Assembly (NCBI RefSeq): GCF_016026235.1
Contig: NZ_CP065613.1
Direction: 5' to 3' (one strand)
Source of the DNA: Escherichia coli
GTDB taxonomy: Bacteria; Pseudomonadota; Gammaproteobacteria; Enterobacterales; Enterobacteriaceae
DNA length: 64,000 nucleotides
The notes under the pieces were generated by a model. The model did no database searches. It was not told the DNA's origin and saw only the letters and a list, made by a program, of their open reading frames with translations. Each line of letters starts with the position of its first letter. Within the stretch, counting starts at the first letter, position 1. Of this stretch, positions 21,871 to 54,659 are shown in pieces. Position numbers and translations under genes: made by a program.

Positions 21871-23129
21871 GTTTTGCGACCATTTCTGTTATCGGACTGG
21901 GTTACATCGGGCTGCCTACAGCAGCAGCGTTTGCCTCACGGCAAAAACAGGTGATTGGTGTCGATATCAACCAACACGCGGTTGATACCATCAATCGTGG
22001 CGAAATCCATATCGTCGAACCTGATTTGGCGAGCGTAGTAAAAACTGCCGTAGAAGGCGGTTTTTTACGAGCGAGCACGACGCCAGTTGAAGCGGATGCC
22101 TGGCTGATTGCTGTACCCACGCCGTTTAAAGGCGATCATGAGCCAGATATGACCTACGTTGAATCGGCTGCTCGCTCCATTGCGCCAGTGCTGAAAAAAG
22201 GCGCGCTGGTGATCCTTGAATCCACCTCGCCGGTGGGGTCAACCGAGAAGATGGCAGAATGGTTAGCAGAGATGCGTCCGGATCTCACTTTCCCACAGCA
22301 GGTGGGCGAGCAGGCGGACGTCAACATTGCTTACTGCCCGGAACGCGTGTTACCGGGCCAGGTTATGGTCGAGCTGATTAAAAACGATCGCGTGATTGGT
22401 GGTATGACGCCGGTTTGTTCGACCCGCGCCAGCGAACTGTACAAAATTTTCCTCGAAGGTGAGTGTGTCGTCACTAACTCGCGGACGGCGGAAATGTGTA
22501 AGCTCACCGAAAACAGCTTCCGCGATGTGAATATCGCTTTTGCTAATGAATTGTCGCTGATTTGTGCCGATCAGGGGATTAACGTCTGGGAACTGATTCG
22601 CCTGGCGAATCGTCACCCTCGCGTTAATATTCTTCAGCCTGGCCCTGGCGTGGGCGGTCACTGCATTGCTGTTGATCCGTGGTTTATCGTGGCACAGAAC
22701 CCCCAGCAGGCGCGGCTTATCCGTACCGCGCGCGAAGTGAACGATCACAAACCGTTCTGGGTTATCGATCAGGTGAAAGCGGCGGTGGCTGATTGCCTGG
22801 CGGCTACCGATAAACGCGCCAGTGAACTGAAAATCGCCTGCTTTGGTCTGGCGTTTAAACCGAATATTGATGACCTGCGCGAAAGCCCGGCGATGGAAAT
22901 CGCTGAACTGATCGCCCAGTGGCATAGCGGCGAAACTCTGGTTGTTGAGCCTAACATCCACCAGTTGCCGAAAAAACTGACCGGGCTTTGTACTCTGGCG
23001 CAGCTTGACGAGGCGCTGGCAACGGCAGACGTGCTGGTGATGCTGGTCGATCATAGTCAGTTTAAAGTTATCAATGGCGACAATGTCCATCAGCAGTATG
23101 TCGTCGATGCCAAAGGAGTCTGGCGCTGA
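21867..23129 (+). CDS. wecC: UDP-N-acetyl-D-mannosamine dehydrogenase
   Basis: 420-aa [25 protein letters not shown] (Rossmann GxGxxG); 4-bp overlap with wecB. Confidence 0.95.
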
Positions 23130-33424: not shown

Positions 33425-33452
33425 AACCCCGCTTCGGCGGGGTTTTTTGTTT
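33425..33452 (+). terminator. tRNA-operon terminator
   Basis: ACCCCGCTTCGGCGGGGT hairpin followed by T-run. Confidence 0.8.
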
Positions 33453-33564: not shown

Positions 33565-34800
33565 ATGCTGCAACAGGTTCCAACGCGTGCTTTTCATGTG
33601 ATGGCGAAACCGAGTGGTTCCGATTGTAATCTGAACTGTGACTACTGTTTTTATCTCGAAAAACAATCCCTTTACCGCGAAAAGCCAGTCACGCATATGG
33701 ACGATGACACGCTGGAAGCGTATGTCCGTCACTATATCGCTGCCAGCGAACCGCAAAACGAAGTGGCTTTTACCTGGCAGGGCGGCGAACCAACGTTACT
33801 CGGGCTGGATTTTTACCGCCGTGCCGTAAAGTTACAGGCGAAATACGGTGCTGGCAGGAAGATAAGTAACAGCTTCCAGACTAACGGCGTGCTGCTCGAT
33901 GATAAATGGTGTGCATTTCTGGCAGAAAATCATTTTCTTGTTGGGTTATCGCTGGACGGTCCGGCTGAGATCCACAATCAATATCGCGTGACCAAAGGTG
34001 GCAGACCAACGCATAAGCTGGTGATGCGTGCCCTGACGCTGCTGCAAAAACATCATGTCGACTATAACGTGCTGGTCTGCGTCAACCGCACCAGCGCGCA
34101 GCAACCGTTGCAGGTTTATGATTTTTTGTGCGATGCGGGAGTCGAATTCATCCAGTTTATTCCGGTGGTCGAGCGCCTGGCTGATGAAACAGCTGCCAGC
34201 GATGGACTGAAACTACATGCGCCTGGTGATATTCAGGGGGAACTGACGGAATGGTCGGTGCGCCCCGATGAATTTGGTGAATTTCTGGTGGCGATATTCG
34301 ACCACTGGATCAAACGCGACGTCGGCAAGATTTTCGTGATGAATATCGAATGGGCGTTTGCCAATTTTGTCGGTGCGCCGGGTGCGGTTTGCCATCATCA
34401 GCCAACCTGTGGGCGCTCGGTGATTGTTGAGCACAACGGCGACGTTTACGCCTGCGATCACTATGTTTATCCGCAATATCGGCTGGGGAATATGCATCAG
34501 CAAACAATTGCAGAAATGATCGATTCCCCGCAACAGCAGGTGTTTGGTGAAGATAAATTTAAGCAATTACCGGCGCAGTGTCGCAGTTGTAACGTGTTAA
34601 AAGCGTGCTGGGGAGGCTGCCCGAAACACCGCTTCATGCTCGATGCCAGCGGCAAACCGGGGCTGAATTATTTGTGTGCCGGGTATCAGCGTTATTTCCG
34701 CCATCTACCGCCATATCTTAAAGCAATGGCTGATTTGCTGGCGCACGGTCGCCCGGCCAGTGACATTATGCAGGCACATTTGCTGGTGGTGAATAAGTAA
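33565..34800 (+). CDS. aslB: anaerobic sulfatase-maturating enzyme homolog (radical SAM)
   Basis: ATG at 33565 inside track ORF; MLQQVPTRAFHVMAKPSGSDCNLNCDYCFY (CxxxCxxC radical-SAM motif). Confidence 0.92.
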   Translation: MLQQVPTRAFHVMAKPSGSDCNLNCDYCFYLEKQSLYREKPVTHMDDDTLEAYVRHYIAASEPQNEVAFTWQGGEPTLLGLDFYRRAVKLQAKYGAGRKISNSFQTNGVLLDDKWCAFLAENHFLVGLSLDGPAEIHNQYRVTKGGRPTHKLVMRALTLLQKHHVDYNVLVCVNRTSAQQPLQVYDFLCDAGVEFIQFIPVVERLADETAASDGLKLHAPGDIQGELTEWSVRPDEFGEFLVAIFDHWIKRDVGKIFVMNIEWAFANFVGAPGAVCHHQPTCGRSVIVEHNGDVYACDHYVYPQYRLGNMHQQTIAEMIDSPQQQVFGEDKFKQLPAQCRSCNVLKACWGGCPKHRFMLDASGKPGLNYLCAGYQRYFRHLPPYLKAMADLLAHGRPASDIMQAHLLVVNK

Positions 34801-34835
34801 AAAAGCGGCCATTTTGTGGCCGCCTGCGGTTGATT

Positions 34836-34870
<35 letters not shown>

Positions 34871-34883
34871 TGATCGTGCAAAT

Positions 34884-35045
34884 TCAATAAATTGCAGCGT
34901 TCTGTGGATACTGGTTTGGGTGATCGTATCCGGCAAAGCCTTTGCGTGCGGTGGCAGTTGACGGGGTATCTGCTGCGCTGGCCATGAGAGGAAGAGCGGC
35001 GGCGACAGCAACAACAAGAAGTTTGGGTGAAAACGAAAATTCCAT
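34884..35045 (-). pseudogene. aslA: arylsulfatase aslA 5' remnant (53 codons; signal-peptide region only)
   Basis: Minus-strand ATG at 35045 reads [53 protein letters not shown] then stops inside the REP-linked motif; only ~240 bp separate it from aslB, where a ~1.65-kb gene is expected by synteny. Confidence 0.6.
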
Positions 35046-35468
35046 GCAAAATGCTCCGGTTTCATGTCATCAAAATGATGACGTAATTAAGCATTGATAA
35101 TTGAGATCCCTCTCCCTGACAGGATGATTACATAAATAATAGTGACAAAAATAAATTATTTATTTATCCAGAAAATGAATTGGAAAATCAGGAGAGCGTT
35201 TTCAATCCTACCTCTGGCGCAGTTGATATGTAAGGCAGGTTTATTATATCGCGTTGATTATTGATGCTTTTTTTAGTTTTAACGGCAATTAATATATGTG
35301 TTATTAATTGAATGAATTTTATCATTCATAATAAGTATGTGTAGGATCAAGCTCAGGTTAAATATTCACTCAGGAAGTTATTACTCAGGAAGCAAAGAGG
35401 ATTACAGAATTATCTCATAACAAGTGTTAAGGGATGTTATTTCCCGATTCTCTGTGGCATAATAAACG

Positions 35469-35676
35469 GGTAGATGCTCATTCCATCTCTTATGTTCGCC
35501 TTAGTGCCTCATAAACTCCGGAATGACGCAGAGCCGTTTACGGTGCTTATCGTCCACTGACAGATGTCGCTTATGCCTCATCAGACACCATGGACACAAC
35601 GTTGAGTGAAGCACCCACTTGTTGTCATACAGACCTGTTTTAACGCCTGCTCCGTAATAAGAGCAGGCGTTTTTTT
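35469..35676 (+). ncRNA. glmZ: GlmZ small RNA (activator of glmS translation)
   Basis: GTAGATGCTCATTCCATCTCTTATGTTCGCC... through terminator hairpin GCCTGCTCCGTAATAAGAGCAGGCG + T7; matches recalled GlmZ sequence and its position upstream of hemY. Confidence 0.85.
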
Positions 35677-35723
35677 ATGCATCAGAAAGGTCCCGGAGGT
35701 GCTTGCCTCCGGGTGAGAAGGAA

Positions 35724-36920
35724 CTACTGTGGTGGGTTGTTCTGCAACGTTAACATCAAACCGTCGCGACGCATCGCTGCAGCTTCTTCCGGCTTGTGCA
35801 GTCTGTCCAGCGCGTCGGCAAGCCATGCGTAATCGTAGGCGTCCGGACGTTGTTTCAGCGCCGCGCGGAAGGCGAGCGATGCTTCCTGCCATTCTCCGTG
35901 CTTCATCAGTGACTGGCCCAGTGTGCTCCACAACAGCGGGCGATCGCCGACGTTTTTGATCTGCTGGCGCAGCACTTTTTCCAGCTGTTCCGGATTGTTG
36001 GTTTTCAGTCGAGGAATCGGCAGCAGTAGGCGATCGTCGTACTGGCGTTTCAGGCCATCGATGATAATTTGCTGGGCAGTATCATGATCGTCACATTCAA
36101 TAAGATGTTCCGCCATTGCCACCTGCAACGCTACCTGATGACGCGTTTTCCGGCTTTGGTTTTTCCACCAGTTACGCAAACCTTCACTACCGTTATCGGC
36201 ACGCGCCTGATCCATCAGGCCAATCCATGCCTGTTGTTCCAGCATTGCACGATGTTCTTCATCACCAACATGGGCTTTCGCCATTGATGGGATGATATCC
36301 AGCAGCGAACTCCATGCACCTGTGCGGATATACGCCTGTTCCGCCAGACGTAATACTTCCGGATGGCGTGGCGTAACTTCCAGCAGCTTATCCACGCCGT
36401 GGCGTGCAGCATGGTTTTCATTACGGGCCAGTTGCAGACGTACACGGGTGATTTCTACCGGAATGGTGTCATTGCCGGCCAGCTCTGCTGCGCGTTCCAG
36501 ATGTTGGTTGGCGCGTGCTTCATCACCACGTTGTTGCGCGGCTTCGGCAGCCAGTAGATAGTTCACCACCGGTTGTTCCGCGTGATCGGCATTTTTCGCC
36601 ATCAGCTTTTCAACTTGCTGATAATCGCCTTCCGCCAGTTTCAGCAGCGCCTGTTCGGTCTGCTTACGGGCACGGCGACGCTTACGTCCGACAAACCACC
36701 CACGGGTGTGTGCGCCTGTGCGGAAGATCCGCCGCAGTAGCCACTCAATGGCAAACAGCACTACCATCGCCAGAATCAAAATAATCGCCAGGCCCGTGAC
36801 GCTGGTTTCGATATTGTAGTTGTCAGTCTGGATCAGCACGTAACCCTGATGACCGGCAATCATCGGGCCAACCACTATCCCCGCAATCAGCAAAACAAAG
36901 AGTAATAACACTTTTAGCAT
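35724..36920 (-). CDS. hemY: HemY (TPR-containing inner-membrane protein)
   Basis: 398-aa ORF MLKVLLLFVLLIAGIVVGPMIAGHQGYVLIQTDNYNIE... Confidence 0.93.
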   Translation of the reverse strand: MLKVLLLFVLLIAGIVVGPMIAGHQGYVLIQTDNYNIETSVTGLAIILILAMVVLFAIEWLLRRIFRTGAHTRGWFVGRKRRRARKQTEQALLKLAEGDYQQVEKLMAKNADHAEQPVVNYLLAAEAAQQRGDEARANQHLERAAELAGNDTIPVEITRVRLQLARNENHAARHGVDKLLEVTPRHPEVLRLAEQAYIRTGAWSSLLDIIPSMAKAHVGDEEHRAMLEQQAWIGLMDQARADNGSEGLRNWWKNQSRKTRHQVALQVAMAEHLIECDDHDTAQQIIIDGLKRQYDDRLLLPIPRLKTNNPEQLEKVLRQQIKNVGDRPLLWSTLGQSLMKHGEWQEASLAFRAALKQRPDAYDYAWLADALDRLHKPEEAAAMRRDGLMLTLQNNPPQ

Positions 36921-49257: not shown

Positions 49258-49372
49258 TTGCCGGATGCGGTGCTGCGCACCTTATTTGGCCTAAAAAATC
49301 ATTCATATTCAATAAATTGCAACGTCATGTATGCCGGATAGGGCGTTTACGCCGCATCCGGCATCTGCGCCA
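49258..49372. repeat. BIME-like element (two opposed REP units around a linker) after uvrD
   Basis: GCCGGATGCGGTGCTGCGCACCTTATTTGGC ... ATTCAATAAATTGCA ... TGCCGGATAGGGCGTTTACGCCGCATCCGGCA. Confidence 0.7.
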
Positions 49373-49401: not shown

Positions 49402-49833
49402 TTAACCTTTCCGCTCGACGGAAATCATGGTGACAAAAGGATAGCGTTGCCACGGGATTGCCCCGCCTTTCATATACATATGTGAAATCGTACCATCAAG
49501 ATAAAGCAGCTGCTCAACGTTCAGTTTCGCTTTGGCATAACAGGCAAAATCATAAAAATTTGTCGCCTGCTGGCTCAACAAAAACACGGCATTCCCATGT
49601 TTATTAATCCCAACACCGTTACGAATTTTACGTGAGGCGACGTTGGGATGAATACGCGGATTAATTACACCGTTTTCCATCAACATTGGCCCTGACTGCA
49701 CCGCAAACTGAATATCTTTACTGGCTTTAAAAGCATCTAGACGAACGATGCCGACTTTATCTCCCGCGACATAAAACACGCCGCCAGGACGGATAAAGAA
49801 ATTCCCTTCACCTGAAGCGAGATTTAACGCCAC
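49402..49833 (-). pseudogene. yigE: yigE C-terminal fragment (DUF2233), separated from its 5' part by IS4
   Basis: Track ORF continues the reading frame of 51266..51604 across the IS4 target duplication (...QQKV | ALNLASGEG...). Confidence 0.8.
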
Positions 49834-49842
49834 CTTCTGCTG

Positions 49843-51268
49843 TAATGCCGATCAGTTAAGGATCAGTTGACCGATCCAGTGGCTGTGTAAGAATCCGGAA
49901 ACGCTCACTTGTTTCCGGATTTTTTTATGCACATTGGACAGGCTCTTGATCTGGTATCCCGTTACGATTCTCTGCGTAACCCACTGACTTCTCTGGGGGA
50001 TTACCTCGACCCCGAACTCATCTCTCGTTGCCTTGCCGAATCAGGTACTGTAACGCTACGCAAGCGCCGTCTTCCCCTCGAAATGATGGTCTGGTGTATT
50101 GTTGGCATGGCGCTTGAGCGTAAAGAACCTCTTCACCAGATTGTGAATCGCCTGGACATCATGCTGCCGGGCAATCGCCCCTTCGTTGCCCCCAGTGCCG
50201 TTATTCAGGCCCGCCAGCGCCTGGGAAGTGAGGCTGTCCGCCGCGTGTTCACGAAAACAGCGCAGCTCTGGCATAACGCCACGCCGCATCCGCACTGGTG
50301 CGGCCTGACCCTGCTGGCCATCGATGGTGTGTTCTGGCGCACACCGGATACACCAGAGAACGATGCAGCCTTCCCCCGCCAGACACATGCCGGGAACCCG
50401 GCGCTCTACCCGCAGGTCAAAATGGTCTGCCAGATGGAACTGACCAGCCATCTGCTGACGGCTGCAGCCTTCGGCACGATGAAGAACAGCGAAAATGAGC
50501 TTGCTGAGCAACTTATAGAACAAACCGGCGATAACACTCTGACGTTAATGGATAAAGGTTATTACTCACTGGGACTGTTAAATGCCTGGAGCCTGGCGGG
50601 AGAACACCGCCACTGGATGATACCTCTCAGAAAGGGAGCGCAATATGAAGAGCTCAGAAAACTGGGTAAAGGCGATCATCTGGTGAAGCTGAAAACCAGC
50701 CCGCAGGCACGAAAAAAGTGGCCGGGACTGGGAAATGAAGTGACAGCCCGCCTGCTGACCGTGACGCGCAAAGGAAAAGTCTGCCATCTGCTGACGTCGA
50801 TGACGGACGCCATGCGCTTCCCCGGAGGAGAAATGGCGGATCTGTACAGTCATCGCTGGGAAATCGAACTGGGATACAGGGAGATAAAACAGACGATGCA
50901 ACTGAGCAGGCTGACGCTGAGAAGTAAAAAGCCGGAGCTTGTGGAGCAAGAGCTGTGGGGTGTCTTACTGGCTTATAATCTGGTGAGATATCAGATGATT
51001 AAAATGGCGGAACATCTGAAAGGTTACTGGCCGAATCAACTGAGTTTCTCAGAATCATGCGGAATGGTGATGAGAATGCTGATGACATTGCAGGGCGCTT
51101 CACCGGGACGTATACCGGAGCTGATGCGCGATCTTGCAAGTATGGGACAACTTGTGAAATTACCGACGAGAAGGGGAAGGGCCTTCCCGAGAGTGGTAAA
51201 GGAGAGGCCCTGGAAATACCCCACAGCCCCGAAAAAGAGCCAGTCAGTTGCTTAACTGACTGGCATTA
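49843..51268 (+). mobile_element. IS4 insertion sequence (1426 bp)
   Basis: Terminal inverted repeats TAATGCCGATCAGTTAAG / CTTAACTGACTGGCATTA; perfect 12-bp direct repeat CACCTTCTGCTG at 49831-49842 and 51269-51280. Confidence 0.93.
49927..51255 (+). CDS. insG: IS4 transposase
   Basis: [34 protein letters not shown]... (442 aa, DDE type) inside track ORF 49909..51255. Confidence 0.93.
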
Positions 51269-51604
51269 CACCTTCTGCTGACCGTTTTCGATGTACAAAC
51301 CGAGCGGCGCATAGCTTTCATCATAGATGCCGCCGTTCATCGCCATCTGCACCTGACCCTGACTATTCATATCCGCCAGCAGAGCATGTAACGTTCCCCA
51401 CGCTTCGCCATTAGCTTTTTGCCAGTACATTTTCACCCGCTCTGTTTGAGGATTAACGGTATACGCCTGTACGGTCAGCGTCGGATCTGAGAGTGCGCAA
51501 TCATCAGCGGCAACAGCAAACAAGGGAAGTAAGGTGAGGGTGAGAAAAATCTGTTTGAGATTCAAGGTGATCATTCCTTTACCAATGAGTAGCCGATGCG
51601 CCAT
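51266..51604 (-). pseudogene. yigE: yigE N-terminal fragment (signal peptide + first ~110 codons)
   Basis: Track ORF MAHRLLIGKGMITLNLKQIFLTLTLLPLFAVAADDCALS...; stops two codons into the IS4 end. Confidence 0.8.
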
Positions 51605-51973: not shown

Positions 51974-52924
51974 ATGCTGAGCGCATTTCAACTGGAAAAT
52001 AACCGACTGACCCGGCTGGAAGTCGAAGAGTCACAACCCCTTGTAAATGCAGTATGGATTGATCTTGTCGAACCGGACGACGACGAGCGACTGCGCGTAC
52101 AATCTGAACTTGGCCAGAGCCTGGCAACCCGCCCGGAACTGGAAGACATCGAAGCATCGGCACGTTTCTTTGAAGACGACGACGGCCTGCATATTCACTC
52201 CTTCTTCTTCTTTGAAGATGCGGAAGATCACGCCGGTAACTCCACTGTGGCATTTACCATCCGTGATGGTCGTCTGTTTACTCTGCGTGAGCGTGAACTG
52301 CCCGCTTTTCGTCTGTATCGTATGCGTGCCCGTAGCCAGTCGATGGTAGACGGTAACGCCTACGAGCTGCTGCTGGATCTGTTCGAAACCAAAATCGAAC
52401 AGTTGGCAGATGAAATTGAAAATATCTATAGCGACCTGGAGCAGTTGAGCCGGGTGATTATGGAAGGGCATCAGGGCGATGAGTACGACGAGGCGCTCTC
52501 CACTCTGGCGGAACTGGAAGATATCGGCTGGAAAGTTCGCCTGTGTCTGATGGATACCCAGCGCGCGCTCAACTTCCTGGTGCGTAAAGCGCGTTTACCG
52601 GGTGGGCAACTGGAGCAGGCGCGTGAAATCCTGCGAGATATCGAATCCCTGCTGCCGCATAACGAATCCCTGTTCCAGAAGGTGAACTTCCTGATGCAGG
52701 CGGCGATGGGTTTTATCAACATCGAGCAGAACCGCATCATCAAAATCTTCTCGGTGGTATCCGTGGTATTCCTGCCGCCGACGCTCGTTGCTTCCAGCTA
52801 TGGGATGAACTTTGAGTTTATGCCAGAACTGAAGTGGAGTTTCGGCTACCCAGGCGCGATTATCTTTATGATCCTCGCGGGCCTGGCACCGTATCTGTAC
52901 TTTAAGCGCAAGAACTGGCTGTAA
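51974..52924 (+). CDS. corA: Mg2+/Co2+ transporter CorA
   Basis: ATG at 51974 inside track ORF 51959..52924; [20 protein letters not shown]...; GMN motif and C-terminal TM pair; 316 aa. Confidence 0.95.
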
Positions 52925-52931
52925 TATGAGT

Positions 52932-52977: not shown

Positions 52978-53457
52978 TTATTTAAAGTCATGCGGATTGA
53001 AAACTCGCTCTATTTTATTTTCTTGTGTTAATTGATACTCAGTAAAATCGTTAATACCAATATGAGTGTTACGATAAGGGTATTCATTAATAACCATTAA
53101 GTAATTTTTCACGATGCAATTATCATTGCTCTTAATTGTCGGGAAACAGTAGAGATCTTCATACGGCCCTTCGATATATTTTTTATAGTCAGTGAAGCCA
53201 TTACCGATATCAATGACATACCAGGTATGCCAACTACCTTCTGGTAGGGGATGTTGATTTTTAATTTCATTCTGATGCTTCAGATACCAATTTATTTTAT
53301 CGCTGTCAGTCCATGGCAGATGATCAACGACCAGAAAGACTGAATTGCCAGCATCAGAGTATGTATACAAAATCTGTACAGGACGCAATGTCCATAAATT
53401 ATAGATGCAGCATAGAAGAAATAAACATAATATAATTTTCTGGAGTTTGCTTTTCAT
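52978..53457 (-). CDS. hypothetical signal-anchored/exported protein (159 aa), second gene of corA-adjacent cassette
   Basis: Track ORF; N-terminal hydrophobic segment MKSKLQKIILCLFLLCCIYNLW; start overlaps upstream ORF stop (ATGA at 53454-53457); AT-rich codon usage. Confidence 0.7.
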   Translation of the reverse strand: MKSKLQKIILCLFLLCCIYNLWTLRPVQILYTYSDAGNSVFLVVDHLPWTDSDKINWYLKHQNEIKNQHPLPEGSWHTWYVIDIGNGFTDYKKYIEGPYEDLYCFPTIKSNDNCIVKNYLMVINEYPYRNTHIGINDFTEYQLTQENKIERVFNPHDFK

Positions 53458-54308
53458 AGATAATTTTCGATTCTTTCGATAGTGTTAAAATTGGTGAAAA
53501 AAGGTTTGAAAGCAAAGTCTTTATGCCGTTGTAAAAAGAACCATATGCGAAAAAATCTATATTTGCTGTAAGTCTTGTTTTTGATATCAGTTACATCAAG
53601 ACCGAAGTGGTCCTGTGCTACAAAATGAATTGTTGCACTCCATCCTATAGCGTATTTTTGAAAACTTAAAAGAGATATTTTTTGAGCTGAAATATCATGA
53701 ACACTGATTCCTAAGCCATTAAAACTGTCCTCGAAGTCATTAAATTTATTTAGTCTTGATGAAAGTAATTTGGTTTTAATGCTTTGCAGGATAAGAGGTT
53801 GGTATCCTGTCGAGGGAGTTGAATTAATGCCATTTTCGATACATTCTTTGATTATTCGTATTGGACTATTATAACCATATTTATTTATTTTTTCATGAAA
53901 AGATAAATTTAATTGTTGGCTATGAAAATTGCTGCCATTTCCATATCTAAAATGTTCAATCAGATCTTCGATAAGTGTTTTATATTGTCCAAAAAAGGAA
54001 AGCATTTTTGCTAGTTCTTTCATTTCTGCAAATAAAATATCAGTGCATTCACGTTGTGATATTTTTGTTCCGGAACTTGAGGCACTAAAAGCAACATTAA
54101 TAGAACCTGGGCCAGGGAAATGGTATTTAATAAGTCTGTAAGGATCAACTTTTGCTGAGATATCGCTTAGGCCGAGTGAGAGAAAGTCTTGTTCTACCAT
54201 ATCACCATATTGCATATCATCAGCAGAAAAATCATCGAATAAACTAATAGTTTCGAAAAGTGTACAGGGAATATTAATTGGCGGAAGTAATATGTTATTC
54301 ATTTGCAT
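53454..54308 (-). CDS. hypothetical protein (284 aa), first gene of corA-adjacent cassette
   Basis: Track ORF MQMNNILLPPINIPCTLFETISLFDDFSADDMQYGDMVEQDF...; no TM segment or catalytic motif I can assign by eye; AT-rich. Confidence 0.7.
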   Translation of the reverse strand: MQMNNILLPPINIPCTLFETISLFDDFSADDMQYGDMVEQDFLSLGLSDISAKVDPYRLIKYHFPGPGSINVAFSASSSGTKISQRECTDILFAEMKELAKMLSFFGQYKTLIEDLIEHFRYGNGSNFHSQQLNLSFHEKINKYGYNSPIRIIKECIENGINSTPSTGYQPLILQSIKTKLLSSRLNKFNDFEDSFNGLGISVHDISAQKISLLSFQKYAIGWSATIHFVAQDHFGLDVTDIKNKTYSKYRFFRIWFFLQRHKDFAFKPFFTNFNTIERIENYL

Positions 54309-54498: not shown

Positions 54499-54635
54499 TT
54501 GCCTCCAGTTCTGGCATGAACTTTGAGTTTATGCCAGAACTGAAGTGGGGCTTCGGCTACCCTGGCGCGATTATCTTTATGATCCTCGCGGGCCTGACAC
54601 CGTATCTGTACTTTAAGCGTAAGAACTGGCTGTAA
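54499..54635 (+). pseudogene. diverged duplicate of the corA 3' end (last ~45 codons + stop)
   Basis: ~137 bp alignable by eye to 52788-52924 with roughly ten mismatches; encodes ...[40 protein letters not shown]; track ORF 54432..54635 extends it to an upstream ATG. Confidence 0.85.
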
Positions 54636-54659
54636 CTATACGATGTCGCTGTGAGTAAG

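Follow-up and report, generated by a model that had tools for sequence, protein, structure and literature searches.

The yigE locus and its IS4 insertion

We analysed a 64-kb stretch of E. coli DNA (64,000 nt, hereafter the window), in which yigE lies on the minus strand between uvrD and corA, as it does in K-12. The gene is split into two fragments by a complete copy of the insertion sequence IS4, and the 12 bp at which the element entered are present on both of its sides. The features of the locus, with coordinates in the window, are as follows.

49402..49842, minus strand: 3' fragment of yigE, codons 109-254 and the stop codon; codons 109-112 are the duplicated target
49831..49842, no strand: left copy of the 12-bp target-site duplication, CACCTTCTGCTG
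49843..51268, plus strand: complete IS4 element of 1426 bp, with 6 mismatches to K-12 IS4
49843..49860, plus strand: left terminal inverted repeat (IRL), 18 nt, TAATGCCGATCAGTTAAG, matching IRR at 16 of 18 positions
49867..49924, plus strand: promoter-like site (TTGACC-16-AAGAAT with TG) together with a 14-nt hairpin and its T-run, located within IS4 immediately 5' of the transposase ATG, from the promoter scan and inverted-repeat list; putative function
49927..51255, plus strand: IS4 transposase gene (insG type), 442 aa and stop, with the ATG at 49927 and the stop at 51253-51255
51239..51264, minus strand: terminator-like hairpin of 11 bp with a T-rich tail after it, within the right end of IS4, from the promoter and hairpin scan and inverted-repeat list
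51251..51268, minus strand: right terminal inverted repeat (IRR), 18 nt, TAATGCCAGTCAGTTAAG read inward, matching IRL at 16 of 18 positions
51269..51280, no strand: right copy of the 12-bp target-site duplication, CACCTTCTGCTG
51269..51604, minus strand: 5' fragment of yigE, codons 1-112, contained in an ORF of 112 aa at 51266..51604

The element is IS4 itself, a member of the IS4 subgroup of the IS4 family. IS4 of E. coli K-12 (insG) is the type element of this family, and the window copy shares with it a length of 1426 bp, 18-nt repeats with 16 matching positions, a single 442-aa DDE transposase with an Nterm_IS4 domain, and a 12-bp duplication. The inverted repeats begin with TAATGCC and the ends are identical to those of K-12 IS4. 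Over their full length the window element and the resident K-12 IS4 are identical at 1420 of 1426 nt (99.6%), and the 6 nt differences correspond to 4 aa differences. The two copies occupy different positions, as the only annotated IS4 of K-12 lies between yjgZ and nanX and the window copy lies in yigE. The transposase reading frame contains no frameshift, and its product matches the Pfam domains Nterm_IS4 (7.6e-33) and DDE_Tnp_1 (1e-31). Direct reading of the translation also located the Y(2)R(3)E(6)K motif, which is a hallmark of the IS4 family (PMC2266710). Exactly this transposase protein is recorded as the IS4 ORF of Shigella flexneri and Enterobacteriaceae, and it is present in 203 contigs. 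No second copy of IS4 is present within the 64-kb window. The intact ends and ORF, together with the empty site in the nearest relative (see below), suggest that the IS4 copy in yigE is functional.

The duplicated 12 bp correspond to yigE nt 325-336, codons 109-112. Searching both strands of the 64-kb window found CACCTTCTGCTG only at the two positions that abut IS4, and the probability that 12 nt abutting both IS ends would be identical by chance is approximately 4^-12, or 6e-8. Its length lies within the 11-13 bp, or approximately one helical turn, expected for IS4, and duplications of 12-14 bp flank other IS4 copies. IS elements commonly cause misjoins during assembly, and the junctions could in principle reflect a repeat misplaced by the assembler. 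However, a misjoin would not yield a perfect duplication of 12 bp, a length typical of IS4, at what proved to be the top-ranked target in the window, and the same structure has been annotated independently in 35 complete genomes. The probability of an assembly artefact is therefore close to negligible.

The 5' fragment of yigE ends after Val112, and the next codon, TAA at 51266-51268, is the outermost triplet of IS4. Since this stop codon comes from the IS4 terminus, the truncated YigE would carry no foreign residues. When 49402-49842 was joined to 51281-51604, the result was a frame of 765 nt, comprising 254 codons and a stop with no internal stop, and other E. coli encode an intact protein of 254 aa that matches the reconstructed YigE residue for residue. 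The first-pass annotation had described a full 1426-bp IS4 with an intact 442-aa transposase and both terminal inverted repeats, flanked by a perfect 12-bp target-site duplication, within a yigE frame that becomes continuous once IS4 is removed in silico. All of this was confirmed by our analysis of the ends, domains and ORF, by re-examination of the two identical copies of CACCTTCTGCTG, and by the open 765-nt frame. Its further claim that IS4 is the only lesion in yigE is supported by the existence of the exact intact YigE elsewhere in E. coli.

Residues 84-237 of the reconstructed YigE match the NAGPA phosphodiester glycosidase domain PF09992 (DUF2233; 2e-18). The insertion has presumably inactivated yigE. 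Translation of YigE would stop after residue 112 at the TAA supplied by IS4, and the transcript from the yigE promoter would probably end at the hairpin in the right end of IS4, which is oriented so as to stop it. A 112-aa member of a protein cluster (P0014) was considered as the truncated YigE of another yigE::IS4 strain and was rejected, as it is an internal fragment that spans the intact site.

The yigE site is the best-scoring IS4 target in the window

Extreme site selectivity characterizes the classical IS4 hotspots, which have duplications of 11-13 bp and a GC-rich core between A-rich and T-rich arms that lie approximately 20 bp apart. These hotspots include one site in galT that IS4 hit repeatedly, and the pheST attenuator, as reportedly described by Klaer, Habermann, Starlinger and Mayaux in approximately 1979-1984. 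We derived a target matrix from 38 non-redundant IS4 half-sites, none of which came from yigE, aligned by their distance from the IS end. The half-sites were taken from the K-12 copy, three E. coli loci, the partner flanks of IAI39 and VL40, and 26 IMG/VR contigs picked by exact match to the left end of IS4. They share a run of A from -21 to -17, C-rich sequence from -14 to -9, and G at -4 and -1. The full target is a quasi-palindrome of the approximate form AAAA-CGn-C..C-N4-G..G-nCG-TTTT. This consensus fits the classical hotspots in galT and pheST, and also the 'spectacular' conservation of the arms that has been reported (PMC2266710); the yigE site differs from the classical hotspots in lying inside a coding sequence.

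The yigE site has the structure TTTAACGC-CACCTTCTGCTG-ACCGTTTT, and the 40-bp target site as a whole is GATTTAACGCCACCTTCTGCTGACCGTTTTCGATG. Its two arms, which were assigned with the position-weight matrix built from 30-38 IS4 half-sites elsewhere, flank the duplication as follows.

49822..49830, no strand: left target arm (TTTAACGC region), covered by the IS4 target consensus
51281..51289, no strand: right target arm, ACCGTTTTC, the mirror of the left arm

Every position of the window without the IS (62 kb) was scored with this matrix, allowing duplication lengths of 11 to 14 bp. The observed site with its 12-bp duplication ranked first of 249,958 candidates, scoring 22.4 bits (mean -20, standard deviation 8.5), for a matrix that rests on only 30-38 half-sites. 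It still ranked first with a matrix of 30 half-sites that had not been chosen by likeness to the query, for which three sites (L005-L007) that had surfaced through their query-like flanks were dropped. The matrix located the insertion to the exact base over 62 kb, and offers a simple way to foresee where IS4 will land.

Many natural IS4 sites are terminator hairpins, an example being AAAACGGCAGCCTTGAGCTGCCGTTTTTTT between bamD and raiA, and the target might be recognized either as an extruded hairpin or through its sequence. The yigE site is located within a gene's coding region, and its hairpin is imperfect. For these reasons it appears more likely that a symmetric transposase complex recognizes the sequence itself than that it recognizes an extruded hairpin. 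The related elements IS231A and IS10/Tn10 have a symmetric target consensus, a symmetric transposase complex and duplications of approximately one helical turn (PMC2266710). The consensus sequences of these elements differ from that of IS4, whose duplication is longer (11-14 bp) and whose conserved positions reach approximately 9 bp into each arm.

IS4 is found at the same yigE site in diverse E. coli

Of 5426 complete E. coli genomes, 35 (0.65%) have IS4 at exactly the same yigE site, 15 in the orientation seen in the window and 20 in the opposite orientation. These carriers amount to 1.3% of the 2686 genomes in which IS4 is present at all, and the yigE::IS4 structure is visible in the RefSeq annotation of the 35 genomes. 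The window query joins matches in one orientation only; opposite-orientation carriers were found using a synthetic query in which IS4 had been inverted. We read the junctions of 13 same-orientation and 4 opposite-orientation loci. The left junction was common to all 13 of the former, and all 4 of the latter had identical junctions. The CACCTTCTGCTG duplication was present on both sides in every locus read except that of IAI39, in which the right junction has been replaced by a rearrangement.

The sequences surrounding these identical junctions vary. Together with the window, the same-orientation carriers fall into 9 yigE haplotypes within approximately 300 nt of the IS, a count that places IAI39, for which only the left flank is available, with PEC403. 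The nearest differences from the window lie 22-145 nt away from the ends of the IS, barring the rearranged right junction of IAI39. There are at least 7 IS4 alleles among the same-orientation loci, and the four opposite-orientation loci read have yet other haplotypes. AH50 has the same flanks as FDAARGOS_497, Ecol_881 and EC488, and its IS4 differs from theirs at 5 positions. In VR50 the flanks resemble those of K-12 (1 and 0 differences) and the IS4 allele is that of K-12, and the site in K-12 itself is empty. The wider context also varies between carriers, with or without a SAM-hydrolase gene between uvrD and yigE, and with either yigFG or DUF943/YPO3983 downstream. These differences in context, haplotype and IS4 allele show that the carriers represent independent insertion events.

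The same pattern bears on whether a single ancient yigE::IS4 has been inherited or spread by homologous recombination, in which case the insertion in the window would not be recent and the site would not be a hotspot. Such an origin would explain why the carriers read share the same junctions and the 12-bp duplication, and E. coli does recombine. However, since both orientations occur and are about equally used (15 and 20 genomes), a single ancestral insertion cannot explain the carriers, and this effectively refutes it. Also at odds with an ancient insertion are the flanking haplotypes, which number at least nine and depart from the window this close to the element, and the contrast between flanks that diverge by up to 5% and IS4 copies that differ by less than 1%. 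In addition, near-identical relatives with an empty site exist both for the window (FDAARGOS_943) and for VR50 (K-12). We regard a single ancient insertion as highly improbable.

Very probably, then, classical IS4 transposed into yigE at a position set by the target preference of IS4, and did so after the split from the nearest relative. A two-fold symmetric transposase complex presumably reads the quasi-palindromic target, and staggered cuts 12 bp apart would have given rise to the CACCTTCTGCTG duplication.

IS4 accounted for 8 of 758 new insertions in K-12 mutation-accumulation lines (PMC5009759). IS4 is thus an element of low activity in K-12, and use of the hotspot is frequent only relative to the activity of IS4 itself; the low frequency of carriers fits this low activity. 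In the literature that we searched, no paper describing IS4 together with yigE was found; a study of insertion sequences that was retrieved (PMC11708052) concerns IS481, IS5 and IS150, not IS4. While IS4 and its behaviour were already known, our analysis adds yigE nt 325-336 as a recurrent, bidirectional hotspot, of which we found no description. Because yigE::IS4 is homoplasic, it should not serve to mark clones or lineages, and sites of this kind can mislead typing based on IS elements.

Target preference or selection for loss of yigE

Recurrent insertion in one gene could also reflect convergent, possibly pathoadaptive selection for the loss of yigE, acting instead of or besides target preference. 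Several carriers have sources that fit this idea: VL40, VL7S7 and O121 201805972 are of the EIEC type, AF3 and EECO1006 were isolated from blood, and VR50 and EC488 were isolated from urine. The yigE gene of AF3 contains an additional IS1. A yigE point mutation also arose under selection for tellurite resistance, in which its role is unclear (PMC5437285); this was the only yigE phenotype that we found in the literature. However, all 36 events are at one 12-bp site, which is the best IS4 target in 62 kb, whereas selection for loss of function should also have left insertions and nonsense mutations scattered over yigE. The insertion is carried by only 0.65% of complete genomes, and the carriers also include isolates from pigs, wild birds, poultry, calves and wastewater. 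Selection as a cause of the recurrence is therefore very unlikely. We consider it similarly doubtful that some host-associated or invasive lineages benefit from losing YigE, a phosphodiester-glycosidase-like protein that is periplasmic or secreted. If this were true, the hotspot would be a ready-made off-switch for yigE that selection has used repeatedly. Under the favoured explanation, transposition directed by target preference, the insertion is probably selectively neutral.

Age of the insertion and relationship to K-12

The closest complete genome in our collection is that of FDAARGOS_943, in which the yigE site is empty and free of indels; the collections contained no source genome with 100% identity to the window. 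After removal of IS4 and one repeat, an 8495-bp alignment of the window with FDAARGOS_943 contained 4 mismatches and 0 gaps, and the upstream 49,568 bp aligned with 23 mismatches and one 6-nt gap (99.94% identity). Local gene order is also the same, with a DUF943/YPO3983 pair and a 3' remnant of corA downstream of corA. The target in FDAARGOS_943 is CATCTTCTGCTG, which has one mismatch at a position that is C in both repeats of the window and in K-12. Among the sequences compared, this change is specific to FDAARGOS_943. The reconstructed YigE differs from the FDAARGOS_943 allele by a single residue, which is due to a SNP in FDAARGOS_943 that is absent from both the window and K-12.

The perfect 12-bp repeat and the open 765-nt frame are weak clocks when taken alone, because so few bases would rarely have mutated. 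The empty site in FDAARGOS_943 is more informative, since it indicates that the insertion is younger than a divergence of approximately 5e-4 substitutions per site. The age of the insertion would thus be 'recent' within a bound set only by this divergence of approximately 5e-4 substitutions per site from the nearest complete genome.

The yigE gene of K-12 is uninterrupted, and 15 nt and 7 aa distinguish it from the reconstructed gene. Downstream of corA, K-12 has yigF-yigG where the window has the DUF943/YPO3983 pair. The first-pass annotation had called the insertion recent and the strain non-K-12 at this locus, and both statements are upheld. Support for the former is mainly comparative, and comes from the empty FDAARGOS_943 site and from an IS4 allele that is 100% identical to circulating copies; support for the latter comes from the intact K-12 yigE and its 15 nt and 7 aa differences. 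The insertion alone marks no lineage, because it is recurrent and homoplasic, as the example of VR50 with its K-12-like flanks illustrates.

Possible origin of the IS4 copy

The allele of IS4 in the window is that of Shigella and EIEC plasmids and chromosomes, and not the K-12 allele. It is 100% identical (1426 of 1426 nt) to the copies on the chromosome and the 294-kb plasmid of the EIEC strain CFSAN029787, and copies with 100% identity are also present in other EIEC-type isolates and on 217-kb plasmids of S. flexneri. This allele ties the chromosome in the window to the population of IS4 elements on plasmids of Shigella and enteroinvasive E. coli. Together with the nearest relatives, it hints that the window may come from an E. 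coli of the enteroinvasive kind. The donor of the insertion was probably a second IS4 copy with this allele in the same cell, and may have resided on a large plasmid of the invasion type. The plasmid NZ_CP065612.1, which has a 100% identical IS4, was considered as a plasmid of FDAARGOS_943 and rejected, as it belongs to FDAARGOS_945.

Variant structures at the yigE site

Other genomes showed departures from a simple IS4 insertion. In IAI39 the right side of yigE::IS4 is joined to the ygcG region, which is a sign of recombination between IS4 copies. In VL40 both repeats are kept, and an extra 110 bp is present between the left repeat and IS4, consisting of a 53-nt inverted remnant of the right end of IS4 and 57 nt of foreign DNA. 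Such a structure suggests transposition into the hotspot of a composite that had a right end on either side. BEN5202 carries an IS4 copy with 7 additional nt, which its annotation marks as frameshifted.

Rearranged and altered copies of the yigE hotspot

The 12-bp yigE target that is duplicated around IS4 in the window also carries IS4 in other E. coli strains, and several of these loci are rearranged or altered (coordinates for L-numbered loci are locus-internal). In VL40, 110 additional bp (L001 3442-3551) separate the left target repeat from a full IS4. This segment consists of a 53-nt inverted remnant of the IS4 right end and 57 nt of unrelated DNA which resembles an IS4 target arm, and the yigE duplication flanks the entire structure of 110 bp plus IS4. 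The arrangement appears as if a composite with two right ends as its boundaries had transposed.

In IAI39 (L019 5442-7772), the DNA beyond the yigE IS4 is the ygcG-queE region where the 5' half of the gene would be expected, and it adjoins another typical IS4 target, CAGCCTTCGGGCTG GCATTTTTT. This arrangement indicates an inversion or translocation through recombination of two IS4 copies. In AF3 (L010 5130-5870), the yigE 3' fragment carries an IS1 insertion besides the IS4 in the gene. The hotspot IS4 of BEN5202 (L050 2142-3574) is 1433 bp long and annotated as frameshifted.

IS4 on a plasmid and features within the element

An IS4 identical to the window copy (100%) was found on NZ_CP065612.1, a 277-kb IncF plasmid of E. 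coli FDAARGOS_945, at 1501-2926 of plasmid locus L051. This plasmid has five IS4 places altogether.

The window copy contains a promoter-like site that shares sequence with a 14-nt hairpin (49867-49924); the hairpin ends in a T-run directly 5' of the transposase ATG. Such an arrangement could act as an attenuator or as a shield against read-in transcription.

Other candidate IS4 targets in the window

The position-weight matrix derived from IS4 half-sites outside yigE gave the following runner-up target candidates:

33429-33442, a classic terminator hairpin
22838-22848
36789-36801

The corA 3' end and other features of the window

The 3'-terminal ~140 bp of corA are present twice in the window (52788-52927 and 54499-54639; 92.9% identity). 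Between the two copies sits a two-gene block (genes 52978-54308) whose products bear the annotations DUF943 and YPO3983-family in relatives, whereas K-12 has yigF-yigG at this position. The block looks like a cassette whose insertion at the corA 3' end duplicated that end.

A stretch of ~50 nt in the uvrD-yigE intergenic region (49314-49363) recurs in inverted orientation far upstream (34835-34884) at 90-92% identity; the pair probably represents an extragenic repeat of the REP type. The arylsulfatase gene aslA is reduced to a short remnant beside aslB (about 34800-35700), according to the annotation of the near-identical FDAARGOS_943. A PemK/MazF-type toxin gene is located between rep and ppiC (10620-11069, minus strand). 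The ilvG reading frame, which is frameshifted in K-12, is unbroken in the window (1207-2853, 548 aa).
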